64,000 nt of DNA from positions 4,841-68,840 of the IMG/VR virus record IMGVR_UViG_3300045988_093513; one strand, written 5' to 3'. The DNA is from a virus. The notes under the pieces are model-generated. The model saw nothing but the letters and a program-made list of their open reading frames with translations, searched no databases and was not told the DNA's origin. Made by a program: the position numbers and the translations under genes. Below, in pieces: positions 14,883 to 56,865 of the stretch. Positions within the stretch are counted from its first letter, which is position 1. Each line of letters begins with the position of its first letter.

Positions 14883-17783
14883 CTAAACTTTTTTGATGGC
14901 TGGGGTGAAGTCAACAATCATCGTCCCACGAAGCTTCATAAGATAAGTCCTACCAACTTCCAGTGAGCTTCCTTTATTATCAAAGATAACTAACTCTTTG
15001 ACAGTATCATTTACAACACCAGTAACAAAGTGCATAGGCTTACCTTGTTTAGTCTTATGTGCTTTACGTTTAGTTACTGTTACAAGGAAAATAGTCCTAT
15101 CATCGCACAAATCAGACACATAATCGTCCACAGAAGAAAAAGAATATCCGATAGATGCAAGTTCCATCTCTCCATTAGACTGGACATCTTCGTGATGTAC
15201 GAACTTAAACGGTGGCTTACTCTTCCTAGAATCTTTGACCCAATCAATGTACTGTAACAACTCCTCTCTATTGCCTTCAACTGCACCAGCTTTCACTATA
15301 GACTCAAGTACCCTACGGTTAACACTCTTATTGTCCTCTATCCACTGCTTACCATCGTGATTGAACGTCAAAGTATCAAACGCATTTCCTACGTATTTTA
15401 ACATGTCAAATCCTAGGGTTATATGATTAGACATCGGAACGTAGGTATGTTTAAAAACGTCGTTATTTAACGGTGTTTTTGAGCATTTTAACGATTTTAT
15501 ACTTGGTGGTTCTACCTTAATGTGCAGTTGTAAAGAGTGTGAAATGTACTTTGATACCTTCGCTCTGTCGTCTTTGTTGTACTCAAGTAGTGAAGCCATG
15601 TAATACTCTGGATAATTAGCTTTAAGATAAGCTGTTCTCCATGATGTTAACCCGTATGCAACTGCATGCGACTTATTGAATAGGTAATTAGCCGACTTGC
15701 TTATGCTATCGGAAAGATAATCAATGACATCTTTAGGAACCCCATGCTTAAGCCCTTCTTCTTTGAACTTATTCATAGCCGGTTCCATTTCTGAAACAAC
15801 TTTACGTCCGATAATCTTACGTAGAATATCCGCTTCACCAAGTGAATACCCACACAAAGCCTGCGCTATCTGCATTACCTGCTCTTGATATAAGATTACG
15901 CCATATGTTTCTTTGGTAATCTCATCATAGGCCGGATACAAACTCTTGACTGACTTACGTCCAGTTCTTCTATCCACGTAGTCCTTAGCCATACCACTAT
16001 CGAGTGGGCCTGGTCTACATAATGCCATGACTGGTATTAAGTCTTCTGCACCATGAATAGTAATAGAACGGATGAAACCTTTCATCGCCGCTGACTCAAT
16101 CTGAAAACAACCTTCTGTCATTCCACTATTCAACAACTTACATGTTGCATCATCTTTCTCTGGTATATTATTCCAAAGTTTCTGTGCATCTGTACCCATC
16201 ATATCAGCCATTCTATGTACAATAGATAACTGCATAAGCCCAAGCATATCAAGTTTAAGGCACCCCTGTGCTTCAAGGTCGTGATAATCAGTTGCACAAA
16301 CAAAGTCGTCTCCCTGTTTCTCTATCGAGCACCATTCAGTAGGGTCTCTAGGGAATACCATAACGGCACTGGCATGCATACCATAAGACTGTAAACGTCC
16401 AAAGAAATGCTTAGCAAGCGTTCTGAGTCTCTCGTCTTTTACTCCTTCCCATGTTTGAAAATTGGTACTAATCTTATTGACGTAACTGGAAGGTAGCCCG
16501 AGAGCTTGCCCAGCTCTTTTAACAGCCGCCTTCTCCTGCATGTAGTTCATAGTACGTACATGATAAACATCACCATACTTCTGACGTACATACTCAATCA
16601 CTTCATCACGTCTATCGCTTTCAAAGTCGACATCTATATCGCAAGGAGTTACACGCTGTTCATTACAAAAGCGCTCGAAGACGTTATGCCACCTTACGGA
16701 ATCTACCTGAGTAATACCCGAGAGATAAGCTGTACAACACCCACCAACAGACCCGCGACCCAACCCAGTAAGAATACCATGCTCATTGCAATAACCCATA
16801 ATATCTTTGATAATGCAGAGATAATTGAGATAATCGCATCGCCGAAGCACAGGTAACTCTCGTTCAACTCGTACCACATAATCGCTTTTATTGGGCCTGG
16901 CTCCCATGTGTAACCGTTTCCACCCTTCGTTACACCAGTCACGAATCTGTCTTTCAGGGTCTTTAGTGTTGTACTTAGGATAATTGTCACCCCCTTCTGG
17001 AATTACAACATTACACTTGTGAATGATGTTACTGGATTCTTGAATCATGGCGTCAACCTGTTCTCTGCCGAACCCATCTTCCATCATTCTCTGTGTAACT
17101 TCTTTGCCATCCATCATGTAAAAATCTTTACTACTATAGGCATCATTAGTTCCTCTTACGCTTACCCACATATCGTGATAAACAGCATCAGCAGGATTGG
17201 AATAATGACTATCATTAGTAACAAGGACATTGTAACCGTGAGACACAGCATAATCGTAAACCCTCTTATTATACTCTCTCTGTTCTTTGAATCCATGTGG
17301 CTGTACCTCCATGTAGAAATCATCGCCAAACAAATTAGCGATAGTATCAACAACATCGGGATATCGATTAAAGAAGCCAGCTATACATGCGGTAGTACAA
17401 ATCAATCCTTCGTGGTACATCTCTAAATCTTTAATACCAATCCTAGGTTTTCGATAGAACTGACGTGCCGCAACAGTAGACAGTTTATACAAGTTCCTAA
17501 GTCCGTTAATATCTTTAGCTAACAGTATGATATGTGCATTCTCTCCGCTCTTCATCTCTGGTTCTGGACAAAAATAACCTTCCATACCAAGTATGGGTTT
17601 GATACCCGACCGCTTACACTTGTGATAAAACGCATACAACCCAGTAGTTGTACCATGGTCTGTTAATGCTACCGCTTCATATCCAAGTTCTTTACCTCTT
17701 TGAATAATCTCGTCAATAGTACAATACCCATCTCCTATAGAATAGTCGGAATGCTGATGTAAGTTTGTAAATGTACTACTCAT
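14883..17783 (-). CDS. dnaE: DNA polymerase III alpha subunit (DnaE-type, N-terminal PHP domain)
   Basis: PHP motif 'FTNLHQHSDYSIGDG...VALTDHGTTTG'. Start is likely the Met at 17783 (MSSTFTNLH), which has SD AAAGGAAG 8 nt upstream. The longer ORF call from 17810 lacks an RBS. Confidence 0.85.
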   Translation of the reverse strand: MSSTFTNLHQHSDYSIGDGYCTIDEIIQRGKELGYEAVALTDHGTTTGLYAFYHKCKRSGIKPILGMEGYFCPEPEMKSGENAHIILLAKDINGLRNLYKLSTVAARQFYRKPRIGIKDLEMYHEGLICTTACIAGFFNRYPDVVDTIANLFGDDFYMEVQPHGFKEQREYNKRVYDYAVSHGYNVLVTNDSHYSNPADAVYHDMWVSVRGTNDAYSSKDFYMMDGKEVTQRMMEDGFGREQVDAMIQESSNIIHKCNVVIPEGGDNYPKYNTKDPERQIRDWCNEGWKRLHMGARPNKSDYVVRVERELPVLRRCDYLNYLCIIKDIMGYCNEHGILTGLGRGSVGGCCTAYLSGITQVDSVRWHNVFERFCNEQRVTPCDIDVDFESDRRDEVIEYVRQKYGDVYHVRTMNYMQEKAAVKRAGQALGLPSSYVNKISTNFQTWEGVKDERLRTLAKHFFGRLQSYGMHASAVMVFPRDPTEWCSIEKQGDDFVCATDYHDLEAQGCLKLDMLGLMQLSIVHRMADMMGTDAQKLWNNIPEKDDATCKLLNSGMTEGCFQIESAAMKGFIRSITIHGAEDLIPVMALCRPGPLDSGMAKDYVDRRTGRKSVKSLYPAYDEITKETYGVILYQEQVMQIAQALCGYSLGEADILRKIIGRKVVSEMEPAMNKFKEEGLKHGVPKDVIDYLSDSISKSANYLFNKSHAVAYGLTSWRTAYLKANYPEYYMASLLEYNKDDRAKVSKYISHSLQLHIKVEPPSIKSLKCSKTPLNNDVFKHTYVPMSNHITLGFDMLKYVGNAFDTLTFNHDGKQWIEDNKSVNRRVLESIVKAGAVEGNREELLQYIDWVKDSRKSKPPFKFVHHEDVQSNGEMELASIGYSFSSVDDYVSDLCDDRTIFLVTVTKRKAHKTKQGKPMHFVTGVVNDTVKELVIFDNKGSSLEVGRTYLMKLRGTMIVDFTPAIKKV

Positions 17784-18216
17784 CTGACGCTTCCTTTCTC
17801 TGCTTCTCAAGTGTCATCTTCTCCCACTCTTTACGTGCGGACTCTTTCGCTTCTTCCATCTTCTTGAGGTACAGGCCATAATATGTATCACTCTTCTGCT
17901 TCATGTAGTTAGATACGTAATCTTCGGAATCAAGACTCTCACGTATTCTATCATTCTCTTCCGTGTGTTCGCCAGTGTACTCTTCAACAAGTATCTCTAC
18001 TGGATATGCACATAAATAAATATGGAATGGCGTTTCTACGTAGGATAAACACTCACGACCATTAAGGTTGTTCAATACCTGGTTAGGCATAGGAGCATTT
18101 GTTTTGCTTGTCATACGTCTCATTGTATGTTTCTTACCTGCTCCATATAAACCAAGTACATCTGCCTTATGAATATATACACCGAAACCAAGGTTCATTA
18201 ATTCTTTATCCTTCAT
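17776..18216 (-). CDS. Hypothetical protein (start revised to the internal Met, MKDKELMNLGF)
   Basis: The promoter at 18247-18275 lies inside the longer ORF call. SD 'AAAGGGGGTGAG' precedes the ATG at 18216. The gene overlaps dnaE at ATGAGTAG. Confidence 0.5.
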   Translation of the reverse strand: MKDKELMNLGFGVYIHKADVLGLYGAGKKHTMRRMTSKTNAPMPNQVLNNLNGRECLSYVETPFHIYLCAYPVEILVEEYTGEHTEENDRIRESLDSEDYVSNYMKQKSDTYYGLYLKKMEEAKESARKEWEKMTLEKQRKEASDE

Positions 18217-18246
18217 CCGGCTCACCCCCTTTCCAACTCTATTTGA

Positions 18247-18275
18247 ATTATACCACAGTTCCAAAAGTTTGTCAA
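18247..18275 (-). promoter_or_regulatory. SigA-type promoter for the leftward operon (dnaE and downstream)
   Basis: Reverse complement: cTTGACAaacttttggaacTGTGGTATAAT, with a 17-nt spacer and extended -10. Confidence 0.65.
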
Positions 18276-18377
18276 GGGGGTTTTGAAAAAATTTTTCGGC
18301 AAAAACTGTTGGCAAATTTCAATGGCCATTATCTTATATTATTGAAAGAAACTTTTAAAAACTTTAAAATAAAAAGC

Positions 18378-18406
18378 TTGACAAGGTTTCTCTTTTGTGG
18401 TACAAT
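18378..18406 (+). promoter_or_regulatory. Rightward promoter P1 (TTGACA-17-TGgTACAAT), preceded by an A-rich UP-like tract
   Basis: cTTGACAaggtttctcttttgtggTACAAT, read directly from the sequence. Confidence 0.6.
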
Positions 18407-18446
18407 AATGTCAGAAAGAAATTTCAAAAACTTCAAAAGAAAAGAC

Positions 18447-18475
18447 TTGACAAAGTTTATCTTTTGTGGTATAAT
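18447..18475 (+). promoter_or_regulatory. Rightward promoter P2 (TTGACA-17-TGgTATAAT), a tandem duplicate of P1 ~69 bp downstream
   Basis: cTTGACAaagtttatcttttgtggTATAAT. It is a ~68-bp direct repeat of the P1 unit. Confidence 0.65.
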
Positions 18476-18479
18476 AATG

Positions 18480-19060
18480 TTGTAGAAAAGTGGACAACTA
18501 AATATATGAGTAACCGTTACATTGCGAATACATCTCAGACAATGTAACACGGTGTTGTAAATACAATTGTTGACCGAAACTCAATCATGTAGCAAGACAA
18601 GGTTACAGGAAATCAGGGTACTTTATGTATTGGTATCTCAGCGAAGGCCAGAAGTAATCCACACTTCATGGGGGTCAGGCGCAAGTAATGTCCGTTAAAG
18701 GGAGAAACTTTATGGTGGGTTAAAATCCACCCCCAAAATATTTAGGCAGGAGGCTCAAGTCGAAAGACGGCGTTGGACAACCACTTACCAAGGGTTGAGT
18801 GAGGTTAAGTTCTTTAAGAACTAGGTGTGTTGTCACCTTGAACGACCGAGGCGATGGGGTTCATTCCATTATCTCTGTTAAGACGCTACGTACTGACCGT
18901 GAAGTATACAACTTTTACGGTTTAGTATGCGGCGTCTACCTCCTCACTCCCTCAGCTCCGAGGTTCATTCCCGCCCCGACAGGGCGAATGAACCAAGGAG
19001 CCATGAGAGGGAAAGATAAAATATCTATACTTAACATTAAACTTTAAATAAAATATATCT
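18480..19060 (+). ncRNA. Candidate structured non-coding RNA (unclassified), ~0.55 kb, downstream of the tandem promoters
   Basis: No credible ORF is present (the only one, 18799-19047, lacks an RBS). The locus is GC-enriched relative to its flanks. It contains a long imperfect hairpin, ggttcatt...aatgaacc, at 18962-18995, and the palindrome agttctt-t-aagaact. Confidence 0.25.
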
Positions 19061-19066
19061 TACCTC

Positions 19067-19095
19067 TTGACAAATATTGAATAATATGATATACT
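19067..19095 (+). promoter_or_regulatory. Promoter of the DUF3310 gene (TTGACA-17-TATACT)
   Basis: cTTGACAaatattgaataatatgaTATACT, then SD AAAGGAG at 19123-19129 and ATG at 19139. Confidence 0.55.
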
Positions 19096-19138
19096 ATACA
19101 TATATTAGAGATAGTGAGAATGAAAGGAGAGATATTAA

Positions 19139-19660
19139 ATGACTGAATCTAAGTTTAAAGTAGGTGATAGAGTATATGCTCCATTCCGTGGTTACGGTAC
19201 TGTAATAAGGGCAAAGGATGATTACGCTGTCTACCCAGTGGTAGTAAAGTGGGATAAAGGTAGTGCTGAGGACATTAGCACGTTTACTTCAGATGGTCGT
19301 TTATCTATATATATTAACGACGATTATACTTATACAATTACAGATGAAGAGCACACACTTAACAAAGAGGAGAAAGATTCTAAATCAGACAAGGAGGTTA
19401 AAGCAATGGCTGATAACAAAGTAAAGATTGAGTATTCACCGATTAACCCTTCTCATTATAGGGTAGATGGTATCCCAGAGGCTATTGATATTATGGAACA
19501 TCTCATGACACAGGAGCAGTTTAAAGGATTCCTTTGGGGTAATATTATTAAATATGCGTATCGATATGGACGCAAGGGAGATGAACACGATACAGCGGGT
19601 AAGATTGAGTGGTACGCAAATAGACTTAAGGAAGCGTGTGGAGAAAAGGGGAAGTCGTAA
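19139..19660 (+). CDS. DUF3310-like phage protein (small N-terminal beta domain plus C-terminal DUF3310 motif)
   Basis: 'NPSHYRVDGIPEAIDIMEHL...FKGFLWGNIIKYAYRYGRKG...KIEWYANRL' matches the PSHY...GF.GN.iKY..R.G.K...KakhY pattern of DUF3310 proteins. Confidence 0.65.
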   Translation: MTESKFKVGDRVYAPFRGYGTVIRAKDDYAVYPVVVKWDKGSAEDISTFTSDGRLSIYINDDYTYTITDEEHTLNKEEKDSKSDKEVKAMADNKVKIEYSPINPSHYRVDGIPEAIDIMEHLMTQEQFKGFLWGNIIKYAYRYGRKGDEHDTAGKIEWYANRLKEACGEKGKS

Positions 19661-19977: not shown

Positions 19978-20013
19978 AAAAAAATAGGGAGGCGAAAGCC
20001 TCCCCTTTTTTAT
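19978..20013. terminator. Bidirectional rho-independent terminator
   Basis: gggaggc-gaaa-gcctccc hairpin, with an A-run upstream and T6 downstream. It separates the plus-strand island from the convergent giant gene. Confidence 0.75.
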
Positions 20014-20017
20014 TGGT

Positions 20018-23000
20018 TTAATTCAGTAAGTTACCAAGTGCTCTTACGTTAGAACGTACAATATCAGCTTCTTCATTATCCGATTTAGTTACCATCTTTT
20101 CCGCCTGTTCTGCTGTAACCTTTGGCTTAATATATTTATCTACTGCTTTGTGCGCCTGTTCTGGTGTCTTGCCATAGGATTGCAGTTTTCTAAGATTAGC
20201 TTCTGTCGGATTGTTAACGTAGGCAATCATTACGTCTTTAGCACTGTTAGAGTAATCTTGGTTAATATCTGTTACAAATCTGTTGAGGTCTGTATTAAGT
20301 TTATTCTCGATTGGGTTAAAGCCCATAATGTTTTTAGCTCTATCTACATCACTCATAGACTGGTACTCTGTCTTAGGCATTAACTTACTGTAAGAATAAT
20401 ACTGTCCTCTTGCCGCCTGTAACCATCTTGATGCCGCTGGTACTGCTTTCAACCAAGCAAACATCAGTTGGTCTGTTGTATACTTATCATACATGATGGC
20501 ATCGAAGCTTGCACCAGCAGCAGAACTAAAGTCGATAGCTGTACCTAACGACGGGCCACCAAGGTTACGTAGGTCTGTCGGGTCTTTCATGATATCGGAA
20601 AGACCTACCTTCTTACTGATATCTACACCGAACACCGGAGCTGCAATACCGTAGCACAGTGCTTCACCGATATCACGTGAGAACTGGTCGTTTCTTCTTC
20701 CAGCTGCTTTCAGAATAAAAGCCTTTATCCAATCTTCTGGGTTTGTACCAGTGATTGCTTGGCTCATACCAGAAATCATAGTCATCATCGGGATACCGGA
20801 AATAACACCAGAGAACAACATCATTGTTCCAAGGAATCTCTTGAGTTCTGTACTCTTCTTATTCTTAAGCATCCAGTACATAAAGTGGAATGTCTGGAAT
20901 CCGTAAGATGCAAACTGGAATACACACTTAGCAAGCTGTCCGCCTTTAGCCAAGAGTAGTGGGTCTGTTGCTCTGTTGAAGTTAAAGTTCGTGCGATATA
21001 CGAAATCTCTAATTGTAGCCATACGCTGTGCGTTATATTCTTCTTCGCCAATCTCAGACTTGCTTTCTCTGAACGCCTTATACTTAGGACTGGTATCAAT
21101 GAGATTCTGTGCTACAAGTGCAGCAAACAATCTACATGCAAGGTCTGCACCTCTGAATCCACTCATACTTAAATCAAGAATCTTCTTACCTGTCTTTGGC
21201 ATCTTGTCGATAATACTTTCGCCTTCGTATGCACTACCAGCGTTACCCAACTGAGTAGCCATATCGTTCATAACCGATTCACCGTCTTTGCCATTCAGTG
21301 TATCGAGCATTTCGTCGAACACTTGCAGTTCGATAGCTGTCTTATCTCCCCGTTTTATAGCTTCGTCAAATGCCTTTTCACCTTCTTGTTCAAGTAAGCT
21401 CTTCCCTTTCTTAGTAAGGTACAGGTCTGCCATTACCTGCTGAATTTCTTTGCCGTATTGGCTTACGTCAAACTCGCCTTTCAAAATATCAGACGGCTTA
21501 TGTGCCTTAGTTAAGATACCTGGCATCTTCTTCATTGCATAAGCAAACGCACTTTCTCCCCCGAGTGCATACACGTTAGCTAACTGTGCATACTGTGCGA
21601 GTGCCGTACTCACGTTGAACATACCAAGTTTTAAGTATACGTTGACAGCGATACTGTTATGAAGTAATGCGGGAAGCCACATGTCTGGGAGGTATACACC
21701 ACATGCATTCAAGATATTACGCATACCAGGAACCGCATAGATAGCATCAACCACCATAACACTGAGTCTTCTCATGAATGCATCAGCCGGCTTATCTCTA
21801 CCATTCATATTATCTACGAGTTCGCACATAATATTGTATGGAGAATAGTAAGAGTCTCTCCTAGTTCTATCATAGTTTCTTCCTGTGTACTTGTAGATAG
21901 TCTGCGTCATATCTCTATAGAATGGAGTGAGTGCTTCTACACTATTCACGGTGTGTAAATAATGTTTGAGAGAACCGATAACGTCATGGGAATACAGTCC
22001 GCTATTAGATGTACGTTCACGGGCGTAGTTAGCCGCTAAATACTGTGCACCATTTGCTTTTAAAGCGTCGCTAACTTGTCTGAATGTCTGCACTTTATCT
22101 TTGCCAACACGAATCATCCTGGCTGTCTGAATCAAACGTGGCTTATACTTACCAAATTCTTCCTCGTCTTCTTTATCCATATTGCGAAGAGCGTTAACAA
22201 CTCTTTCGATACTATCGTCGCCCTGCCATTCTTCACTATCATTAAATTTCTTGCGAATAAATTTTGCAAGTCTACCAGAGATATCTGTTTCGGCTTCTTT
22301 CTTACCTCTGCTAACATCCTTCTCTGTGAGAGTACCAATAGATGTATCAACGTTACCGACAATATCTGTACGACCGCCGCCCTGTTCTTGCAGCCATTCA
22401 TCACGTGTCTTTTCTACATATCGTTCGTTCTGTCCGATAGGATGTTCGTTTCTGTATTTAGACCTATCACGTTTGCTTTCAAAAGAACCAATGCTATATG
22501 TAATAACGTGATAATACTTATCGCCTCTCTGGACGATAAAGCCTTCGTCTTTAGATTTCTCATTCTTGTTGGCCTGCTCCTCTGTAATCTCGTGCCATAC
22601 TTCTTTCTGTAGAATATATCTAGCATAGTATCTCGGTGCGTATGCATGCAAGAACCCAGTATGTACACGATTGATGATATCATCATTCTGCAAAGCTCTC
22701 TTCTGTTCTCTTTCGTATGCGTTCATCAGTAACGCACGATATAGTGCTTGGCTTGCGATAAACCCATCGATGACAGGTTGAGCGTATCCTCTCTGTTTCA
22801 TGAGTTTACGTCTGAATTGTTCGCATTCTCTTAATACCTGCTTTTGTAATCTAGCTCTCATGCGAGCCTGACCTTCTACGCCAGTGCCATCTTCGTTCGA
22901 TGGATATGCAATGAACAGGTTCTTGAACTTACCGTTCTGCATGCGTTCATCTTTACATGCATAGAATACCAGTGTACCAGTATCTTCTCTGTACCAGAAG

Positions 23001-26000
23001 GCTTGATTCTTGTAGAACTTTTTCTTTTTCTTGTCGTAATATTCTTTCATCTTTTCAATCTTGTCGTTCATTTTAGCCATGGCTGTAGCCTTATCTGGCT
23101 GATTATGCAGAACAAAGAATATGTCATCATCGTATACTTTAAGCATAGCATTCTTACCAGAAGAAGAGCGATTCTTACATCTTTCGTCCTGCCCAGCTTC
23201 GTATGGAAGGTCGAACAGTTCGACAAGGTCTCTACCTCTATCACTGTTGACATTGATTTCAGTATTGAAGTACTGTCTCAATGCCTTGGTCTGTAACTCG
23301 TTTCCGTCAATGGTGAGGAGCTGTTGCAACTGCTTAACGTATGCGTCACTCTTTGCATTTAATTCCTGCTGATAAGCGATAGAACGCTGCGATTCATCGA
23401 ACAGTCTGTCTGCGTCTTCTTTGTTAACAAGTTCTTCCAACCATCTCATACCTGGAATCAATGCGAGCTTAATGTCCTTGGCATGGTTAAGTCCACTGGT
23501 GGATGTCTGAGAGAATGTCTTGTTGCGTTTGTTTGCGATAGCGTACAGTAATTGCATGAACTTACCACGTGGAGAACCAGCGTCATGAGATACATCTCGT
23601 GCATTGGTAATAACACCCTTGCTAGTACCAACGTCAACCTTCTTCTTTTCCTTTTTCTTTTTAACTGTTGCGTGCTGATTAGTCTGCGTTTTAAAGTTGA
23701 GTACACCAAAGTTAGAATTCGATGTAAGTTCACTTATAGATTCTGCCGCCTTCTTTAACTGTTCTCTCATTCTCTTCTTGTCTTTATTTCTGATTTCATG
23801 TTTTGGGTCTTGTACATCTAACTCACGAAGCAGTTCTGCAGATTTATAAAGCCATGTAGTCATGAAGGCTGAAGAATCGCTTCCTGCGATATTTCTTCTT
23901 TCATTATCGCCAGTGGTATTCGGTGGCGTTGTATCCAAGTGACTATACGTTTCTGTAATTAATTGCTTCGTCGAGTAGAATAATGGTATTTCTTTATTGA
24001 CTGTTTTAGCACCGAATATAATACTTGGTAATATCATACTCATGACTAAGGTTTCATAGTTGCTTGCATCAACGTTTTTGTAGAACATACCAAGTGTGGT
24101 CGCCCCGACTTTGCTGACGAATCTAGCGTCACCAGTCTTAGTACCATCATATCCGATTAAGTTTGCTATAGTCCACATAGCCGCTGTATCTTCGACAAGT
24201 TTATTTACATCTACAAGTTCTGTAATTGCCAGTATTTGTCCCGCTAACAAACTATCGTTATTATTTAAAATCTTGAGAGACTTTTCAAGCTCTTTTTTAA
24301 GTGCTCGACCGATAGCTTCTTCGGCATCGTCCTTTAAATCCTCTGGAAGTTCCTGTGCGTTTCTATCTACGGCAAGACCTCCAAACTTCTCATCTTTCCA
24401 GTTTGCGTCACTAGGAAGTGCAAGTCTATACTTACCTTTTGCTACGTCAATCGTTACTGCTTCATCGGTGAATGCATGCATTAACTCGTGGTATACTGTA
24501 GAACGATGGTCGTCTGCTACTATCCTACCCATAGACTCTTTATATCCACTATCTTTATTCAGCCGGCTTGCAATATATGGAGCTACACCCAACGTGTTGC
24601 TTGCTCTATTTACAAACAGTGTGTGTGCAAATTGAACATTTACATTTTTATCCAGATGTCCTTTGAGGTTAGCGCCCAAGAACGCCGTGTTTTCTTTACT
24701 CATTCTAATAACATCTTCTTTTGGCGTCCCTAAGAGTTCTGAACTCAAATCTCTGATTGCATCTACGGTTAACGGTTTCAGTTCGTGTAACTGTTTGCCA
24801 TAGATTATATCGATTGCATTCGGTAAATCTACATTCTTTACACTGTAAGACTGGTTAGAATTAAAGAGCTCTGGTCTTGTAGTTACACTTTTAAGAAGTT
24901 TATCAAGGATGTCTACAGTTTTGTTTGCAGAATCAAGACCTTTTAATCTTTTCGATGCTATTGTGAATAGCGAACAAAGGTTAGCAATATCAGTGTACGA
25001 TAACTTATCTTTCTGTGCAAGTTCGTAGCTGAATGTATGTAACGATGTGATTAAACCATCACTGCCCATCGCACTATCGTTATGCGCCATCATCAGATAG
25101 TTATAATTTGGGTCCGCCATTAAGTCTTCAATGGTGTATGGAATATCCTTACCGTACTCTTCTTTTAAGTCCGACTTATCTACAGAACCCATGTACTGCA
25201 ATAAAGTAGCGATAGGGTTTTCATATGGTTCGAGCTTGTTCTTTGCTTTCCACTTTGTAGAATCTATATCATGAATATCAACTCTACCTTTGATATTCTT
25301 AATCGGAGAGCTATCGGTGATATCAAGTTTCTTGACAACGTAATACCCATCCTGATAGTCCATGATGTTTAAAGCACCAAGGATTGCTTCCCTAAGTTTG
25401 GTGTACGCCCACGAATTAATGTACCCGCTTTCTTTTGTCTCTTCGTCGCTATAGTCAAACTTCGGCTTCTTGTTTACAACAACGAATCTCTTATCTTTTT
25501 TATCTACTCGAAGAGAGATTGCGTTAACATCGTCACGGAATTCATTTGGCCCTTCGGAAAATATTGGTTTGTTTTGAGGGTTGTGAGAAGTTCCAAACTT
25601 TTTTATCAAAGATGTGTTTCTAGCTCTCCCTGCAATTTCCATCTGCTCGAGATGAACAAATCTATTAACGTCCGCCTTAATCTGTTTCATAACTCGCTCA
25701 CGCACTGTTGCTTCCGATTCGTTTTTCTCTTTTGCTACCTTTTGAATGTATCCATTAAGGCCGTTATTGATAAGAGCTTCTTTAGGAAGCGTATTGTTTA
25801 TAGCTAATACTGCCTTTACAATAACGTTGTTAGAAATACCAGATTCGTCGATGTTAAAATAGTCATGTAACAATGTAGTGATGGCACCAACTACAGTACC
25901 AGACGACTGCAGAACACCGTGGTCCGTGGAATAATTAGTGTCACCAGGTTTAGAACCTTCTTTCTTGGCGAAGAATTCTGTAACGTTACCTTTAACTAAG

Positions 26001-29000
26001 TTAGGTTCTACTTTTTCTTTTCCGAGAGCTGCGTTTGCTGCGCTCTCTTCACGGACGGAAGTAATTACCCAGTTATCTGCCCGACAAAATTCTTTGAGTT
26101 TAGCGAGTCTATCCTCTTCTTTGTTAGCTCCTTTATATTCTTTATACTGTTTGTCCGTTAACAGGTACTTATTTCCTTTGTAGGATACGACACGTTCTTC
26201 GCTTCTCTCTGCTGCGAACTTTCCTTTGTTTGTTCCGTATGCGTAGTTGTATACTACTTTACTAAGCTTTACATCTCGATGGCCAGGGGCTGCCTTATTT
26301 GGGTCTACCTTATGTTCTCTCTTCATCTTATCGGCGATACTTTCAATCTTAGCTTCGAGTGCTTTCGATAACAGTATCGCATCTACTTTTGTGACACCGT
26401 GTTGCACAGCAAACCCTAACTTCAGAGCTACACTACTATCCGTCGGATAGAAATGCCCAGCACCCATCATGCCAGCAGAGAGTACACCACGCTTTGCCTT
26501 ATTAATAGCGTTCTTCCACCTATTAATAAAGTTGTCTTTTGTTTTGTTGTATTTATCCTCGGTCTTAACTTTTTCTATATACCCTTTGCTACACTCTTCC
26601 CACAGGTCTTCAATCCACTTATCTGTAAATTTATTCAACCCGCTGATTGTGTCTTCGTCGTATCCGAGCACTTTCATAATCTGTTTATATTTTTCTACGG
26701 TTACCTGTCTACGTTTCCCGTTTTCTGTTACGATAAGAGACATATCGCTGATATTAATATCGTCAATGCTGGACTTGTTATCGGCTATATACTTACCAAC
26801 AAACTTACTTTCTTCAAATTCGCTTTCTGGCATCATCATTGCCGTGGTTTTAGTGTTAAGCCACGGGAATTTAGTGGTACGTCTATTTACAAGTTTATTA
26901 ACTTCCTGACCATCGACATGCATCTTGCTGATAATGTTATGGCTATAACTTAAGCCAAATAGTTTTCTACCTCTTTGGTCTTTTTGAACGTCTTCGCAGA
27001 TTTGTTTAAGCCCTTGTTCAAAGTTTCTCATGCTAACATACCAATGGTCTCTATCAAGACCTTTAGTTTCAGCGGTAGGGAATAAGCCGTTAATTTTTTT
27101 GATTAAATCAATAGCGTATTCTCGAACATTGTCTGCGTCAGAACTATCTTTATGTTGTGCAAATTCAGATTCACCAATGTCGCCATAGTTATCTCTTACT
27201 GTTCTTACGATAAATGCAATCATAAGATTTGCTTTTTCAGTAGAAGACAGGAATGCGCCATCCTGGTTCTGCCGCTTCAACATATTTTTATAAAGCCCCG
27301 TATCCAGTTCATTACATAACTGAATCTCGAATGATGTAATGGCAAGATAACGAGCTGCTTGGGCTGCTACCGCATAATCAAAACTTCTTTCGAGTGTAAG
27401 GTTGTTGTTGTCTATATAGTCGTGGTGAATTGATGTTACTGCATTTTTTTCGTTCTCCACGCCATCGCCAGTTTTATCTTGACTCTTATCTCCGATATCG
27501 TCATCGTCTTCGCTATGCTGTTCTTTACTGCCTTTGGTTTTCTTCTGCCTATTCGTTTTAGCCTCTTGCTTTTTCACGTCTTCGTTATCTACCTGCATAT
27601 ATTTATCCTTAGCTGCTTCAGCTAAGGCAATAGCTTCTGCTATTATATTGGCTTTTGAAACCGCAACAGCTCTACCATTCTTAGTTAAGAGTTCATTTCC
27701 GGCGACATTGTTTATAAATGCATCTCGTGTGAGACCAATATAATCGGAAAGTTCAATATCTGGTTGCGATACCTTATCGCTTTTTTTAGAATTACCATAC
27801 GCTGCTCGCAGAATAAATGTCTTGCCATATTCGTTTGCCTTCAGCTCAACATCTTTCGGTACTTTACTTAATGATTCTACGATATCTTCTTTAATATTAC
27901 CAAGCTTCTGCATCATTCGATATGCGTTCCAAGCTTCCTCGCCCTTATCTGTATTCACTACAGAAAGGAAAGCATCCGAGAAGGCGTAAATAAACTCACG
28001 AGTGTAGTCTTCAAAGTCTTTATCAGTACCAGTTTTCTTAAAATTATTCAGTAATTCTCTCAGGTGTTCTGCGTATGGCCCACGAACCATTTCGTTATTA
28101 ACTGCGGCGATAATTTCCATACGACCAGTGGATTTAATGCCTTGTTGTGGCTGAGCATATTGCTCTAATAACCATGGAAGTGCATCTGCAAACTTTTCCA
28201 TTCCGTATTCGTGGAGTTCTTTCGGCATACTATATGAAGACATGTCCTGAACCAACCGGTACGCTGTCTGCTTGTCCTCATCCGCACCAACAAACAGGTC
28301 GCCAGTTACGGAGTAAAGCTGTCTAGGTGTAAGCTTTGCCAGAATAATACTATTTCCACCACGGTCTACTATGTATTGCTGATATTTGCTATTCAAAACG
28401 TACCAGAACCATGTGTTTAAGCTAGCGACACCCTTAGAATTCTCAGGGTCTTGCTCCATCTTAACACGTACTCCATCATACGTTGCGATAGCTGTATGAA
28501 TAGCGCCAGGTAAGATATCGAGCAGGTCTGCGTAGGCACTTCTAAAGTCGGTCGGGTTGTCAAAATCAACAACACCATTACGGTTTGCACCGTTAGCTAC
28601 CGTCATTTTATCACGAAGCAGGTTGATACCATAAGACGCAAGAGCACCAAAGGCAGCCATGTATTGCATCTTGGCATGGAACTCTTCTTCTTTACTCTTA
28701 AATTTATGAGCTCCACCAAGAAAACTAATATACTGTTTCGCCTCTGGTAATATGGTCACTAGATTAGCGAAAGACATCCTGTTGATAGTACCGTAGTGTT
28801 TACCAACAACGTCTTTTAATTCTTTATATAACTTCCCTTTACGATACTCATTGTAGCGTTGACTTGCTTTAACGTCTACGGAGTCCTGAACAACTCCTGT
28901 CTGCACAAACTTTAACGTGGGCAGGTCTTTATCTTTTGGTAACTCCTGTGCATTATTCGCTTCACCGTTACGGCTAGCAATAATGTCGTTTATTCTATTG

Positions 29001-32000
29001 AAAGTGGCGTTCAGACTATCGAGTTCGTCCAAGAGGTCGTCTTCGCTAATATCATCTTCGTCCATAAGGTCGTCTTCGATATGAGTTTCATCCTCACTAC
29101 CTTTGTCTGGTGTACCACCATCTTCTTTGAACAGCGGGCTATCTTCTTCCTGTAATTTATGTGCTATTTTTTTCTTGTCAGTTTGTTTTGTACTGGTTTC
29201 GGAACTTTCGGTTTCGCTGCTCGTGCCATTGTTGTCGAACCGCCCCTGTTGATGTGTGTTCCTCCCAGCTTCTGTCCTGGTTTCTGTTTTGCTGTCCGTA
29301 CTACCTTTGGCATTCTTGGGTGGCTGAGTGTTTTCATTTTTCCCTCCTGTTGAAATCTTTGTAATCGAATCGTTAGATTGCACTGGCTGTTGCTGTGTAT
29401 TGCCAGTTGTATCTTTCGGTGTATTAGTATTGTCCTGCTTCTTAGGGGTGACAGCGACATTGTTATTGTTTTTGTTGGTAGCACTATTTGTATTGTCTTT
29501 TGCGTTTACACCAATGACGCTATTATAAACATCATCTGGAATGCTCTTTAGAATAGTAACGGCTGCTGGTTTTGCGGCGTCATCATCGGCTCTTCTGAAA
29601 ACTTCCAAGGCAGGTTTTGGAATATTGAGAGCATTTCTCTTATCAAGCTTGTCGATAATGTTCCGTGCTCTATCTAATCCGTTTGGTGTGTTAATATTTG
29701 CGATAACATTAACCCTTGAATTTCTATCGTTATTTACACTGTCTTCTACTGGATTGGTAGTTTTACCTACGTTCTCCGGCTCTTTCATTTCCGCCGTTAA
29801 ATAACGCTGATTTGCAGCATTTTGAACGTTTTGCACTTGCGGCTGTACTACCTGCTGTGCCACCTGTGGTCTTGCCAGACCACCAAGTGGAGACGTGTTA
29901 AGTCTATCAGTGTGTACTGGTGCTTGTGTCTGTTCTACTCTCTGCTGTGTAACTGCTTCTTGTTTTGTCATGATAGGCTTCTGTACTACTGGGGTCTGCT
30001 GTTCTGTCTGTACTTTCTGTGCTGCCTGTTCCTGCGGCTTCTGTAATTTCTGCTGAGTTTCTTCTACAACCGGTTGTTCTACCAGTTCTTCCACCGGTAC
30101 ATCAGTAACATCTACAACAGGCTGCTGTTCCTGTGTTCTTTCCTGTCTATTCTTCGCTTCCATATAAGCGTTAGGGTCAACGGCTCTAAGTACATCTCTG
30201 ATAGCATTAGTATCATCATTGTTCGCTCTATCAAGAAGTTGCTGATTAACTTTCAAGAATCTGCTCTTGGTTTTATCAGCCAATTCTTCTGCCTTACCGT
30301 TCGGGGCAAGAGAGCGAATAATTTCCTGTGCTCTCTGGATAGCTTCTGTATCAGCGTCTTTCTTTCCAACACTTTTAATAACATTTTTAATATCATTCTT
30401 TACTGCGTCTAATTCCTGTTTTGCCTGTTCAGCCTGAGCTTTCTTTTCGTTATTACGTTCTCTTACGGCATTTACTACGTTCTTTCTATCAAGGTTAGAC
30501 AGAATATAGTAAGCGGCGTTAGTGTCACCGTTTACTGCTTTATTTAACAATTCAGGAGAAAGCTTTGCATTCCCATCTGGAATATTTTCATTGATTGCAT
30601 TAATGTCTGCATTGTTATATGCTCTAGTGAGAATATCTGGCAGGTCTGCCATTTTAGCTCTAGTATCATCAACGAACTGAGACATTGCATCGTTATGTTC
30701 AATAGGCTGCGGCTCTTTTTCTACTGGAGTTGTAATTGCATTTTGCAGTACAGGTGCTTCCTGTGTGACGGTACTTGGCATAACTGGCGCTGTATTACCC
30801 TGCTGTGGCATTACAGTATCACCAGTCAGAGACATAGTATTGTCATCAACTACGTTCGGCATAAGAGGCTGTTCTACTGGTACTTCGTGTCCAATATAGT
30901 CGGACAGGTCTGTACTATCTGCCATAGCATTAGCAATACCAGTTGTCTGCATTAGGTTGTTATAGTCGTTCTTAGCTTCGGCTGTCGGGCCAAGAGAATC
31001 AATATTGTTATACAGGTAACGTCCTGCATTACGCACACCGGCTACACCTACACCAGAGACAAGTGTTGGCAAAAATGCGGAGTTGAACGAGTTGATTTCA
31101 TCGTCAGTAAAGTTGCCTCGGTTGCCATTAGCAATATCACGGAAGAAACTGCCAGCGTCAGCACGGTCATCGTCAAACTTATTAGACATTGCGTCCTGTA
31201 CACGCTGCTGCCATGCTTCCTGAAAGCCTTCGCCAAACGCATTCGTCAGTCTGTTGCCGATAAAGTCGATTGGTTTACTAGCTGTTGACAATCCATACGC
31301 AGCTCGCCCAAGCATAGTATCAGCACGTGCAGTGTCGCCTAAAAGTGCGCTAGCTACTTTACCGCCATTAGAAGCTAATGCATCGGCAATACCAGCCTTC
31401 GCAAGACCTTTTCCGGCAAGAGAGAATAAACCACCAGTAGCACCAGTAGCTACATCAATCGCAGTGTCCATGAAAGAAGAACCAATAAGTTCTGCATTCT
31501 TATATGGGTCACCTGTAAAGCTATCCCATGCCGACTGGTCAATAGTACCATCGTATACGGTGCCAATAGGTCTCTGACCAGCTGCAATCTGTGCTTCCAT
31601 GTTGTCTCTCTTGGCGTCCATATAGTTTTGACCGAAGTTAGCACCAATTTCAAGACCAGCGCTACCTAAGATACCAAGAGCAGGAAGAGCCATTCCACCG
31701 CCAGCTGCTAATGCTGCACCTGCTAACATACCCGGTGCAGAAGAACCAAGCATAGTACCAGCGTCACTGGAAAGACCATGCGGGTCAATAAGGTATCCGA
31801 GAGACCAACGAGACTTGTCTGGGTTATTATCATAGTCATTAGCCCAGTCAGAGTATCTTGCCGCCTGTCTTGTAAGGTCGCCACCAACACCAGCTAACCA
31901 TGGGCTATCTGCTACTACCCCAGCAGCAGTTAAAGCTCCGCCAAGCGTAGACTCGGCAGAGCTTGTAAAACTGTCCCAAAAACTTCCAATGGCCCCTTGG

Positions 32001-32122
32001 TCTAGGTCACGTTCAGACGGAACCCAACCAAGAGCCAGCTTATCTTGGTATTGTCTGTCTGCCTGGTCTAACGCAGCAGCGAGCTGTGCCCCTGGCTGAT
32101 AGTTATTAAACCTTACTGCCAT
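20018..32122 (-). CDS. Giant virion-associated protein (4034 aa); candidate tape-measure or ejection/polyvalent protein with a zincin-like HExxH motif
   Basis: A single uninterrupted 12.1-kb ORF. It has Gly/Ala-rich and Q/T/N-rich low-complexity linkers and long helical segments. 'VYHELMHAF' is encoded at 24476-24490. Hydrophobic stretches occur near the C-terminus (FLGTMMLFSGVISGIPMMTMISG). It is the last gene of the tail-gene run. Confidence 0.8.
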   Translation of the reverse strand: MAVRFNNYQPGAQLAAALDQADRQYQDKLALGWVPSERDLDQGAIGSFWDSFTSSAESTLGGALTAAGVVADSPWLAGVGGDLTRQAARYSDWANDYDNNPDKSRWSLGYLIDPHGLSSDAGTMLGSSAPGMLAGAALAAGGGMALPALGILGSAGLEIGANFGQNYMDAKRDNMEAQIAAGQRPIGTVYDGTIDQSAWDSFTGDPYKNAELIGSSFMDTAIDVATGATGGLFSLAGKGLAKAGIADALASNGGKVASALLGDTARADTMLGRAAYGLSTASKPIDFIGNRLTNAFGEGFQEAWQQRVQDAMSNKFDDDRADAGSFFRDIANGNRGNFTDDEINSFNSAFLPTLVSGVGVAGVRNAGRYLYNNIDSLGPTAEAKNDYNNLMQTTGIANAMADSTDLSDYIGHEVPVEQPLMPNVVDDNTMSLTGDTVMPQQGNTAPVMPSTVTQEAPVLQNAITTPVEKEPQPIEHNDAMSQFVDDTRAKMADLPDILTRAYNNADINAINENIPDGNAKLSPELLNKAVNGDTNAAYYILSNLDRKNVVNAVRERNNEKKAQAEQAKQELDAVKNDIKNVIKSVGKKDADTEAIQRAQEIIRSLAPNGKAEELADKTKSRFLKVNQQLLDRANNDDTNAIRDVLRAVDPNAYMEAKNRQERTQEQQPVVDVTDVPVEELVEQPVVEETQQKLQKPQEQAAQKVQTEQQTPVVQKPIMTKQEAVTQQRVEQTQAPVHTDRLNTSPLGGLARPQVAQQVVQPQVQNVQNAANQRYLTAEMKEPENVGKTTNPVEDSVNNDRNSRVNVIANINTPNGLDRARNIIDKLDKRNALNIPKPALEVFRRADDDAAKPAAVTILKSIPDDVYNSVIGVNAKDNTNSATNKNNNNVAVTPKKQDNTNTPKDTTGNTQQQPVQSNDSITKISTGGKNENTQPPKNAKGSTDSKTETRTEAGRNTHQQGRFDNNGTSSETESSETSTKQTDKKKIAHKLQEEDSPLFKEDGGTPDKGSEDETHIEDDLMDEDDISEDDLLDELDSLNATFNRINDIIASRNGEANNAQELPKDKDLPTLKFVQTGVVQDSVDVKASQRYNEYRKGKLYKELKDVVGKHYGTINRMSFANLVTILPEAKQYISFLGGAHKFKSKEEEFHAKMQYMAAFGALASYGINLLRDKMTVANGANRNGVVDFDNPTDFRSAYADLLDILPGAIHTAIATYDGVRVKMEQDPENSKGVASLNTWFWYVLNSKYQQYIVDRGGNSIILAKLTPRQLYSVTGDLFVGADEDKQTAYRLVQDMSSYSMPKELHEYGMEKFADALPWLLEQYAQPQQGIKSTGRMEIIAAVNNEMVRGPYAEHLRELLNNFKKTGTDKDFEDYTREFIYAFSDAFLSVVNTDKGEEAWNAYRMMQKLGNIKEDIVESLSKVPKDVELKANEYGKTFILRAAYGNSKKSDKVSQPDIELSDYIGLTRDAFINNVAGNELLTKNGRAVAVSKANIIAEAIALAEAAKDKYMQVDNEDVKKQEAKTNRQKKTKGSKEQHSEDDDDIGDKSQDKTGDGVENEKNAVTSIHHDYIDNNNLTLERSFDYAVAAQAARYLAITSFEIQLCNELDTGLYKNMLKRQNQDGAFLSSTEKANLMIAFIVRTVRDNYGDIGESEFAQHKDSSDADNVREYAIDLIKKINGLFPTAETKGLDRDHWYVSMRNFEQGLKQICEDVQKDQRGRKLFGLSYSHNIISKMHVDGQEVNKLVNRRTTKFPWLNTKTTAMMMPESEFEESKFVGKYIADNKSSIDDINISDMSLIVTENGKRRQVTVEKYKQIMKVLGYDEDTISGLNKFTDKWIEDLWEECSKGYIEKVKTEDKYNKTKDNFINRWKNAINKAKRGVLSAGMMGAGHFYPTDSSVALKLGFAVQHGVTKVDAILLSKALEAKIESIADKMKREHKVDPNKAAPGHRDVKLSKVVYNYAYGTNKGKFAAERSEERVVSYKGNKYLLTDKQYKEYKGANKEEDRLAKLKEFCRADNWVITSVREESAANAALGKEKVEPNLVKGNVTEFFAKKEGSKPGDTNYSTDHGVLQSSGTVVGAITTLLHDYFNIDESGISNNVIVKAVLAINNTLPKEALINNGLNGYIQKVAKEKNESEATVRERVMKQIKADVNRFVHLEQMEIAGRARNTSLIKKFGTSHNPQNKPIFSEGPNEFRDDVNAISLRVDKKDKRFVVVNKKPKFDYSDEETKESGYINSWAYTKLREAILGALNIMDYQDGYYVVKKLDITDSSPIKNIKGRVDIHDIDSTKWKAKNKLEPYENPIATLLQYMGSVDKSDLKEEYGKDIPYTIEDLMADPNYNYLMMAHNDSAMGSDGLITSLHTFSYELAQKDKLSYTDIANLCSLFTIASKRLKGLDSANKTVDILDKLLKSVTTRPELFNSNQSYSVKNVDLPNAIDIIYGKQLHELKPLTVDAIRDLSSELLGTPKEDVIRMSKENTAFLGANLKGHLDKNVNVQFAHTLFVNRASNTLGVAPYIASRLNKDSGYKESMGRIVADDHRSTVYHELMHAFTDEAVTIDVAKGKYRLALPSDANWKDEKFGGLAVDRNAQELPEDLKDDAEEAIGRALKKELEKSLKILNNNDSLLAGQILAITELVDVNKLVEDTAAMWTIANLIGYDGTKTGDARFVSKVGATTLGMFYKNVDASNYETLVMSMILPSIIFGAKTVNKEIPLFYSTKQLITETYSHLDTTPPNTTGDNERRNIAGSDSSAFMTTWLYKSAELLRELDVQDPKHEIRNKDKKRMREQLKKAAESISELTSNSNFGVLNFKTQTNQHATVKKKKEKKKVDVGTSKGVITNARDVSHDAGSPRGKFMQLLYAIANKRNKTFSQTSTSGLNHAKDIKLALIPGMRWLEELVNKEDADRLFDESQRSIAYQQELNAKSDAYVKQLQQLLTIDGNELQTKALRQYFNTEINVNSDRGRDLVELFDLPYEAGQDERCKNRSSSGKNAMLKVYDDDIFFVLHNQPDKATAMAKMNDKIEKMKEYYDKKKKKFYKNQAFWYREDTGTLVFYACKDERMQNGKFKNLFIAYPSNEDGTGVEGQARMRARLQKQVLRECEQFRRKLMKQRGYAQPVIDGFIASQALYRALLMNAYEREQKRALQNDDIINRVHTGFLHAYAPRYYARYILQKEVWHEITEEQANKNEKSKDEGFIVQRGDKYYHVITYSIGSFESKRDRSKYRNEHPIGQNERYVEKTRDEWLQEQGGGRTDIVGNVDTSIGTLTEKDVSRGKKEAETDISGRLAKFIRKKFNDSEEWQGDDSIERVVNALRNMDKEDEEEFGKYKPRLIQTARMIRVGKDKVQTFRQVSDALKANGAQYLAANYARERTSNSGLYSHDVIGSLKHYLHTVNSVEALTPFYRDMTQTIYKYTGRNYDRTRRDSYYSPYNIMCELVDNMNGRDKPADAFMRRLSVMVVDAIYAVPGMRNILNACGVYLPDMWLPALLHNSIAVNVYLKLGMFNVSTALAQYAQLANVYALGGESAFAYAMKKMPGILTKAHKPSDILKGEFDVSQYGKEIQQVMADLYLTKKGKSLLEQEGEKAFDEAIKRGDKTAIELQVFDEMLDTLNGKDGESVMNDMATQLGNAGSAYEGESIIDKMPKTGKKILDLSMSGFRGADLACRLFAALVAQNLIDTSPKYKAFRESKSEIGEEEYNAQRMATIRDFVYRTNFNFNRATDPLLLAKGGQLAKCVFQFASYGFQTFHFMYWMLKNKKSTELKRFLGTMMLFSGVISGIPMMTMISGMSQAITGTNPEDWIKAFILKAAGRRNDQFSRDIGEALCYGIAAPVFGVDISKKVGLSDIMKDPTDLRNLGGPSLGTAIDFSSAAGASFDAIMYDKYTTDQLMFAWLKAVPAASRWLQAARGQYYSYSKLMPKTEYQSMSDVDRAKNIMGFNPIENKLNTDLNRFVTDINQDYSNSAKDVMIAYVNNPTEANLRKLQSYGKTPEQAHKAVDKYIKPKVTAEQAEKMVTKSDNEEADIVRSNVRALGNLLN

Positions 32123-56789: not shown

Positions 56790-56865
56790 TGGCACGGATT
56801 GCTAGAATCGAACTAGCGAATTGCTGGGTCAAAGCCAGCCGCCTTCACCACTTGGCTAAACCCGT
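56790..56865 (-). tRNA. tRNA-Gln (anticodon UUG), with CCA encoded
   Basis: Hand-folded cloverleaf. Acceptor stem ACGGGTT/AATCCGT has one G.U pair. U8 and A9 are present. D-arm is GCC-aagtggtgaa-GGC with G18/G19. Anticodon stem is GCTGG/CCAGC with loop CTTTGAC. T-arm is GCTAG-TTCGATT-CTAGC. Discriminator is G, then CCA. Confidence 0.8.

Follow-up and report, generated by a model that had tools for sequence, protein, structure and literature searches.

A probable stand-alone structured RNA gene of an uncatalogued class in one lineage of gut-metagenome phages

Beyond ribosomal RNA, RNase P, transfer-messenger RNA (tmRNA), and introns, very few large and intricate RNAs are known from bacteria and their phages; the main examples are OLE, GOLLD, ROOL, HEARO, and raiA. 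ROOL (Rumen-Originating, Ornate, Large; RF03087) and GOLLD (RF01998) are phage or prophage RNAs that are often found near transfer RNA (tRNA) genes (PMC5737381; PMC12286853). Both form homo-oligomeric nanocages, the purpose of which is unknown, and in GOLLD the 3' region is more conserved and the 5' region more variable (PMC12286853). Large, complex, and highly conserved bacterial RNAs have been argued to be likely ribozymes (PMC5737381). Here we analyze a gene-free locus in 64,000 nucleotides of viral DNA (IMG/VR record IMGVR_UViG_3300045988_093513, positions 4,841 to 68,840), hereafter called the window, in whose coordinates positions are given. A first-pass annotation, made from the letters of the window alone, had proposed that this locus encodes a large structured RNA. 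We are highly confident that it holds a genuine structured non-coding RNA gene of a new class. The whole of the reading that we favor, a stand-alone gene for a ~530-nt structured non-coding RNA of an uncatalogued class that acts in trans in the manner of ROOL and GOLLD, earns moderate confidence from us, because it combines that firm first part with a mode of action that we propose tentatively, by analogy.

The RNA locus matched no known family. The library searched was Rfam 15, which includes models for ROOL, GOLLD, OLE, HEARO, raiA, RNase P, tmRNA, 6S, T-box, and introns. At gathering thresholds there was no match in the RNA locus of the window or of four related phage contigs (L010, L021, L027, and L028; L numbers denote contigs and loci compared with the window), and at E ≤ 10 with permissive filters we obtained only chance matches of the microRNA type (window 18200-19200, L028 700-2170, and L021 3150-3900). 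As a positive control, the group I intron model matched elsewhere in the window (56106-56341). Membership in ROOL or GOLLD was rejected for lack of a covariance-model match at either the gathering score or E ≤ 10, and OLE, HEARO (the IscB omega RNA), raiA, tmRNA, RNase P, 6S, T-box, and group I and II introns were rejected because none of their models matched at the locus. ARAGORN identified neither a tRNA nor a tmRNA in the RNA region of the window. The initial impression that no known family fits, for which a scan including GOLLD, ROOL, HEARO, and OLE had been suggested, thus held even at E ≤ 10. Resemblances to a T-loop, to RNase P CR-I, and to the 11-nt receptor, noticed by eye, were discarded since they are not conserved across clades.

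In the literature, we found no paper describing the window RNA. Fremin et al. (2023) reported candidate structured RNAs of gut phages from IMG/VR, which are supported by covariation and in some cases highly expressed in stool RNA-seq (PMC10690425). Their motifs average 67 nt, compared with ~530 nt here, and their catalogue could contain fragments of the window RNA. Judged by its sequence, the window RNA is a class that is uncatalogued in Rfam, new in sequence and in predicted architecture, and in kind another large ornate phage RNA.

GOLLD- or ROOL-like RNAs had been named at the outset as the closest category. This holds as an analogy, with respect to size, phage origin, and a tRNA neighbor in some relatives, but not as family membership. 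ROOL averages 581 nt, against ~530 nt for the window RNA and ~640 nt for a second type of RNA found in related phages (type 2, described below). Like ROOL, the window RNA belongs to phages of Bacillota-type hosts, has many predicted helices, multistem junctions, and probably a pseudoknot, and in some relatives lies directly beside a tRNA with which it is cotranscribed; strong expression is expected, and no protein partner is evident. Its complexity is comparable to that of ROOL by overall counts rather than helix by helix, with at least 14 helices, at least 2 multistem junctions, and 1 candidate pseudoknot in ~530 nt. However, the two RNAs have no detectable homology in sequence or structure and their conserved blocks differ, and ROOL spans three phyla, whereas the window RNA is confined to one phage lineage. 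GOLLD, too, is large, comes from phages or prophages, and often has tRNAs nearby, and the 3' core blocks of the window RNA are also its most conserved part, even in type 2, but GOLLD often exceeds 800 nt and has an unlike architecture. The genomic context that ROOL and GOLLD share was also found here, in phage contigs of 60 to 72 kb and in a tRNA-Cys directly upstream of the RNA in three clades.

The gene-free span extends from 18220 to 19138, between the ATG of a RemA-like gene on the minus strand (18219) and the ATG of a DUF3310 gene (19139). It had been described as lacking open reading frames (ORFs) from 18316 onward; no frame is conserved there, as detailed below, but the span begins earlier, at 18220, since a 179-aa ORF with a TTG start that reaches 18315 is an over-extension. 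The GC content of the RNA body is 45.5%, compared with 24.6% and 19.8% in its flanks and a window mean of 42.4%. The body therefore lies at the 83rd percentile of the window, so that the GC enrichment called distinct in the first-pass annotation is pronounced when the flanks are the reference but modest against the genome. Coordinates of the features discussed here are collected in Table 1.

Table 1. Features of the RNA locus and its surroundings (window coordinates unless a contig is named; paired strands are separated by a slash)
Feature	Position	Strand	Remarks
RemA-like gene	17776-18219	-	147 aa; left neighbor of the RNA locus
Leftward promoter of RemA-like gene	18247-18275	-	TTGACA-17-TGnTATAAT; 12/12 consensus matches, TG present
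Promoter unit 1	18350-18411	+	A-rich upstream tract; TTGACA 18378-18383, 17-nt spacer, TGgTACAAT, -10 at 18401-18406; 11/12 matches (18378-18406)
Promoter unit 2	18419-18480	+	A-rich tract; TTGACA 18447-18452, 17-nt spacer, TGgTATAAT, -10 at 18470-18475; 12/12 matches (18447-18475)
Structured non-coding RNA body	18483-19012	+	~530 nt
5' three-way junction P1-P3	18510-18606	+	invariant joiner GUUGACCGAAACUCAA after P3
P1	18510-18515/18601-18606	+	5/6 pairs changed on both sides; 99-100% of cells paired
P2	18516-18524/18540-18548	+	conserved 15-nt loop GCGAAUACNUCUCAGAC; 7/9 pairs changed on both sides; 99-100% of cells paired
P3	18550-18553/18573-18576	+	in the 5' three-way junction
P4 hairpin	18616-18638	+	GGGUACU/GGUAUCU; 3/7 pairs changed on both sides; strand assigned from conserved G-U pairs
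P5 three-part arm	18641-18682	+	8/11 pairs changed on both sides
P5a, P5b	18641-18643/18680-18682, 18646-18649/18673-18676	+	
P5c	18651-18654/18664-18667	+	loop ends CCACAC
P6	18691-18703	+	3-bp stem, conserved 7-nt loop GUUAAAG; 3/3 pairs compensatory (UA/CG, CG/GC, CG/GC)
P7 hairpin	18714-18731	+	sequence variable; 7/7 pairs changed on both sides
Invariant GGCWGGAGGCUCAA block, then P8	18745-18768	+	
P8 GNRA (GAAA) tetraloop hairpin	18759-18768	+	stem GUC/GAC -> GGUA/UACC, GAAA kept
P10 long-range helix	18776-18786/18823-18834	+	encloses invariant loop CCAAGGGUUGAGUGAGG and P11; 4/11 pairs changed on both sides; 98% of cells paired
Candidate pseudoknot	GAGUGAGG 18797-18804 (inside P10 loop) with CCUCACUC 18942-18949	+	compatible in 17/18 sequences
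P11 hairpin	18809-18812/18818-18821	+	one compensatory pair
P12 hairpin	18853-18870	+	GAYGGG-KUUCAU-UCCRUU; preceded by invariant ACGACCGAGGC; one pair CG -> UA (8 vs 7 sequences)
P13 long hairpin	18881-18937	+	~23 bp; base GACG/CGUC constant, upper stem differs by clade
P14 terminal hairpin	18954-19001	+	CAGCUC...GAGCUG, holds second GGUUCAUYCC; compensatory in plain alignment at pair 517/559 (CG 8, UA 8, GC 1)
YUAACAU motif	19031-19037	+	UCUAACAUA in most clades and type-2 RNAs; 20-30 nt past the terminal hairpin
Promoter of DUF3310 gene	19067-19095	+	11/12 matches with TG; ribosome-binding site also present; marks right boundary of RNA locus
DUF3310 gene	19139-19660	+	nucleotide-kinase-like; next gene right of the RNA
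33-nt block of second non-coding element	L021 3106-3138, L027 2674-2706, L028 787-819, L010 3018-3050, L045 2111-2143	-	

Relatives of the locus were fetched by way of the RemA-like protein and the DUF3310 neighbor from IMG/VR, JGI/ENA metagenomes, Logan assemblies, and one GTDB genome, in which the match is a 70-kb contig binned with a Lachnospiraceae metagenome-assembled genome. An nhmmer profile of the window RNA recovered 24 distinct sequences in about five clades, scoring from 678 down to 205 bits, on gut-metagenome phage contigs of ~60 to 72 kb. Among the samples rich in this phage is ERZ1034901, with a contig covered ~2800-fold. The position of the RNA is constant: it lies between a replication module (RemA-like and DNA polymerase III genes) and a series of small rightward genes. 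All relatives whose RemA-like protein is at least 54% identical have a gene-free gap of ~1 kb upstream of the RemA-like gene, and downstream of that gene they encode DNA polymerase III alpha, a Rad52-like recombinase, and a DnaG-DnaB primase-helicase. A RemA-like locus at 41% identity (L059) has neither the gene-free gap nor the RNA, and the RNA is absent from distant DUF3310 relatives (L004 and L006). Among INPHARED phages, no DNA similar to the locus (distant mode) or to window positions 1-25000 (near mode) was found. When IMG/VR was scanned for exact occurrences of four conserved blocks, only the same five contigs and chance matches in coding DNA (L017 to L019) came up.

Several lines of evidence indicate that selection has maintained a fold. 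The RNA body has a predicted folding energy of -179 kcal/mol (z = -5.87 relative to dinucleotide shuffles), and 0 of 100 shuffles folded as well; the minus strand folds worse (z = -4.09). In an RNAalifold analysis of 18 sequences, compensatory changes occurred in 30 of 80 pairs. Because MAFFT mis-registers the variable arms, we built three covariance models and realigned all matches to them. In model R2 (5' junction and P4, 18505-18640), 99.6% of cells were paired and 16 of 26 pairs had changed on both sides, with a covariation score of 0.52 compared with 0.22 for shuffled alignments. In R3 (P5 to P7, 18639-18742), the corresponding values were 94.7%, 18 of 21 pairs, and 0.73 compared with 0.24, and in the core model R1 (18740-18873) they were 96.9%, 7 of 28 pairs, and 0.198 compared with 0.110. 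Compensatory changes were thus found in 41 of the 75 modeled pairs, and for each model the score was reached by 0 of 500 shuffles.

Two further controls bear on these models. When the 3' partners were slid by 1 to 3 columns, pairing fell to 30 to 50% in all three, compared with 95 to 99.6% in the true register. R2 and R3 had been built from three clades only, and the four clades held out matched R2 (E = 1e-17 to 1e-21) and R3 (E = 3e-3 to 3e-7) with their pairs kept, which constitutes an independent test of the fold. The conserved G-U pairs identify the plus strand as the RNA strand. In minimum free energy (MFE) folds of the 3' part, the same three hairpins formed in 8 of 8 clade representatives. 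These comparative data show a conserved multidomain fold with at least 14 predicted helices on the plus strand. The proposal of a large structured RNA, together with the comparison against homologous phages that had been recommended for checking it, was borne out in this way across 24 homologs.

Covariation shows that the RNA folds as two domains. The 5' domain begins with a three-way junction and continues with four hairpin arms. The 3' domain is organized around a long-range helix, to which are added a GNRA hairpin, junction strands that are invariant, a long hairpin of variable sequence, the terminal hairpin, and a probable pseudoknot. A GNRA loop also occupies the P8 position in type-2 RNAs. 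All eight clade representatives form P13 in their MFE folds, though MAFFT cannot align its stems. The hairpins pointed out at first reading are present: the segment ggttcattcc occurs twice (18858 and 18962), and a long imperfect hairpin spans 18944-19012. The candidate pseudoknot varies only by C or U opposite G, and because both of its strands are nearly invariant, we regard it as inferred rather than proven. Other long-range pairings suggested by RNAalifold (AGGGAG:CUCCCU, AGGAGG:CCUCCU, and GGAGGCU:GGCGUCU) were rejected, since they clash with the covarying helices P6 and P13 or are broken in many sequences.

The 5' flank of the RNA contains a 62-nt direct repeat with 85% identity between its units (18350-18411 and 18419-18480). 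Each unit carries a near-consensus extended -10 promoter directed rightward, as had been recognized at first reading; the period is 69 bp, rather than the ~68 bp then given. Together with the leftward promoter of the RemA-like gene, these rightward promoters form a divergent promoter hub. Near-consensus extended -10 promoters lie upstream of the RNA in every homolog, the divergent type 2 included, in 1 to 3 copies, and the number of copies differs even among near-identical phages (1 in L002, 2 in the window, and 3 in L001 and L003). Most homologs keep a promoter at about -37, counted from the start of the RNA alignment. Judging from promoter unit 2, transcription would start at ~18482-18483.

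Two observations concern the promoter region itself. A-rich tracts occur in phase just upstream of the -35 elements (window 18340-18377 and 18409-18446: AGAAAG, AAAAACUU, and AAAAGAAAAG). RemA is an activator that contacts DNA at A-rich repeats lying upstream of promoters; given this property and the RemA-like character of the divergent neighbor, the tracts may be binding sites of the RemA-like protein rather than simple UP elements. The RemA-like assignment comes from a match to Pfam PF04025 that is weak and seen in distant homologs only. In addition, a degenerate third promoter-like element (TTGGCA...CATTATCTTAT, window 18310-18338) aligns with an intact TTGACA-N15-TGGTATTAT promoter in the relatives L002, L031, and L035. 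The comparison suggests loss of one upstream promoter from the window and duplication of another.

The 5' end of the RNA was placed by means of the promoter and, in relatives, the 3' end of a tRNA. In three clades (represented by L010, L021, and L042), the promoter is separated from the RNA by a tRNA-Cys(GCA), the end of which is ~10 nt from the start of the conserved RNA, so the RNA is cotranscribed with the tRNA there. In these clades, the tRNA would be transcribed first from the same promoter, and the 5' end of the RNA is presumably made by tRNA processing. The only tRNA of the window lies 38 kb from the RNA. The 3' end was placed at the last conserved hairpin. In no clade is P14 followed by a U-tract terminator, and for this reason the terminal hairpin and processing probably determine the 3' end between them. 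The YUAACAU motif past this hairpin may be a signal for processing or termination.

At the same position in two further phages (L027 and L028/L029) we found the type-2 RNA, of ~640 nt. These sequences are too divergent for detection by nhmmer, and model R1 was not significant on L027 and L028 (best score, 6 bits). Type 2 shares with the window RNA the tandem promoters, the block GGCUGGAGG followed by the GNRA hairpin, a long-range helix around a small hairpin, a GUUAUAG hairpin, and a 3' hairpin followed by UCUAACAUA. Between the two type-2 sequences there are 25 compensatory pair changes. Type 2 is a probable sister type of the window RNA, a relation drawn from synteny, shared promoters, shared motifs, and parallel core architecture rather than from statistics.

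On these grounds we postulate the following course of events. Host sigma-70/sigma-A RNA polymerase would start at ~18482 from one to three tandem extended -10 promoters (two in the window), the strength of which suggests an abundant, early, stand-alone transcript. The folded RNA would then act in trans as an RNA-only particle, an RNA-protein particle, or a ribozyme, possibly in connection with tRNA or translation. Roles as a leader, an antisense RNA, or a message appear not to apply. With regard to antisense action, the reverse complements of three conserved loops had no matches above chance in the 64-kb window, which argues against such a role on the phage's own genes. We further speculate, with rather more doubt than hope, that the window RNA represents a third independent class of giant phage RNA beside ROOL and GOLLD, abundant early in infection, self-assembling or else a new ribozyme acting on tRNA or translation, and accompanied by its ~640-nt sister type. 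If this were true, convergent ornate RNAs in unrelated phages would imply a general function still to be found.

ROOL and GOLLD proved to form unprecedented RNA-only nanocages, and an unrelated RNA of ~530 nt would offer an independent handle on their role. Traits common to all three, such as phage context, occasional tRNA linkage, and complexity, would point to function. The window RNA is also a compact and well-delimited target for cryo-electron microscopy and genetics, and the three covariance models and the 24-sequence alignment provide the seed for a family. More generally, gene deserts behind consensus promoters in gut phages appear to be a productive hunting ground for new classes of RNA.

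A number of considerations count against the interpretation of the locus as a trans-acting RNA gene. Its functional half (assembly, catalysis, and partners) is argued by analogy, and the transcript ends are deduced from sequence features. Without an intrinsic terminator after the last hairpin, read-through into the downstream genes is possible. The shuffle control can be beaten by phylogeny alone, so the case for the fold depends on the slid-partner control and on the clades held out; most homologs are closely related, and the effective sequence numbers in the models are 1.1 to 1.2. The family is narrow, being restricted to one phage lineage and absent from the relative whose RemA-like protein is 41% identical, and the tRNA neighbor is missing from the window and from several clades.

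Ribozyme activity can be stated more specifically than we have done above: the RNA might cleave, ligate, or modify itself or a tRNA. Such activity would explain the many invariant unpaired nucleotides, which include the long single-stranded junction blocks GUUGACCGAAACUCAA, CCAAGGGUUGAGUGAGG, and ACGACCGAGGCGA, and it would suit an RNA that is large and complex and is cotranscribed with tRNA-Cys in three clades. However, the RNA matches no ribozyme family in Rfam, and the tRNA is absent from most clades, the window included. We give a self-processing or tRNA-related ribozyme a small but appreciable chance, and consider it a subcase of our favored explanation, not a separate competitor.

The main rival to a trans-acting RNA is replication initiation. 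ColE1 RNA II and the T7 primary origin, the latter with tandem promoters and an AT-rich segment, are transcription-primed origins, and the locus resembles them in its strong, tandem promoters, its transcript of ~0.5 kb (close to RNA II in size), and an AT-rich segment beside replication genes. By this account, the tandem promoters and the AT-rich spacer (19013-19138, 20% GC) would form a transcription-activated origin, with the transcript as a primer or R-loop former. The locus adjoins the RemA-like, DNA polymerase III alpha, Rad52-like, and DnaG-DnaB genes, it coincides with a switch in the direction of transcription and with the cumulative GC skew minimum, its tandem promoters vary in copy number, and its flanks are AT-rich. 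Yet the skew minimum is explained equally well by the switch of coding strand, and no iterons or DnaA-type repeats were seen besides the promoter units. Covariation has kept at least 14 helices intact, along with a GNRA loop and invariant junctions, which indicates selection on a compact folded RNA, unlike a strand that stays hybridized to DNA. An origin element is therefore unlikely to be the explanation of the locus, while the promoters may have a dual role that includes replication initiation.

A cis-acting 5' leader of the rightward operon, whether an attenuator, a riboswitch-like sensor, or an mRNA-stabilizing structure, would share its strand with the downstream genes and lack a U-tract terminator after its last hairpin, both of which are the case here, and in other clades a string of small genes follows the RNA on the same strand. 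But the gene directly downstream varies by clade, with DUF3310 occurring in the window type only and a 104-aa ORF being conserved further on, so the RNA is not the leader of one particular gene. In the window, the next gene has a promoter and ribosome-binding site of its own, as had been noted earlier in arguing that the transcript is not simply a leader. Moreover, 530 nt with 14 helices far exceeds known bacterial leaders, and Rfam returned no riboswitch or leader match. We rejected membership in the leader or riboswitch class on the basis of the variable downstream gene, the separate promoter, and the missing terminator, and regard a cis-acting role as quite improbable.

Protein coding was likewise rejected, in view of the lack of both a conserved open frame and codon-periodic substitution. 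The longest ORF between 18219 and 19139 encodes 82 aa (18799-19047, GTG start) and is not conserved. A conserved frame in homologous phages, which would have counted against an RNA, was sought in all six frames of the 24 homologs: each frame has several stops of at least two kinds in 24 of 24. Stop codons are recoded in some gut phages, and the 82-aa ORF does exist in the window, but the chance that a coding sequence was overlooked through an alternative genetic code or as small-peptide genes is negligible, because every frame of every homolog contains TAA plus TAG or TGA, so that no single stop reassignment opens a conserved frame, and because near-identical relatives are separated by 1-nt indels in the RNA region and 25-nt blocks are invariant without third-position wobble beside covarying stems.

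The non-window clades, but not the window, have a second conserved non-coding element ~100 to 130 nt downstream of the large RNA. It consists of nested hairpins (GUGUGAGUAAC...GUUAGUCACA) followed by a 33-nt block, GGUGUGAGGGCAUGGNCNCGUAGUCCAGUACUC. The block is identical in type-1 and type-2 phages and is therefore better conserved than the large RNA. The element had no Rfam match at gathering thresholds. Separately, the motif ACGGGTTAWAGCCGGGT led to one more ORF-poor region behind a consensus promoter, at ~620-1290 on the minus strand of L056 (IMGVR_UViG_3300029906_000023), a viral contig of 43 kb that is unrelated. All that this region has in common with the type-2 RNAs is the 18-nt motif CACGGGUUAUAGCCGGGU. 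It matched neither Rfam nor R1 and may represent a further large RNA or a match by chance.

Insertions appear to affect two of the neighboring genes in relatives. In L003 (3032-4249), a close relative, the DUF3310 gene downstream of the RNA matches as two pieces ~670 bp apart, which suggests interruption by an intron or mobile element. DNA polymerase III alpha is split into two ORFs in L045 (3437-6447), L044 (527-3530), L048, and L027 (4429-7735). An HNH_3 endonuclease gene lies between the halves in L044, L045, and L048, and L027 has a ~400-bp gap with no called gene. The split suggests an insertion of the intron or intein type, which the 975-aa gene of the window does not have.

Elsewhere in the window, the group I intron matched by Rfam (84.5 bits, 56106-56341, minus strand) and a tRNA-Gln(UUG) (56790-56865, minus strand) occupy a region of ~900 bp with few long ORFs, among structural and packaging genes. 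A single ORF of 4,034 aa (20018-32122, minus strand) extends over 12.1 kb, about one-sixth of the genome. It has no PHROG match, has a 4,266-aa counterpart in L027, and converges with the RNA operon at a bidirectional terminator (19986-20005). A 1,015-aa protein (57723-60770, minus strand) appears to be an unusual fusion: its N-terminal 400 residues match portal proteins, and residues ~410 to 770 match families annotated as terminase large subunit or helicase, while a separate terminase large subunit is encoded at 60925-62376.

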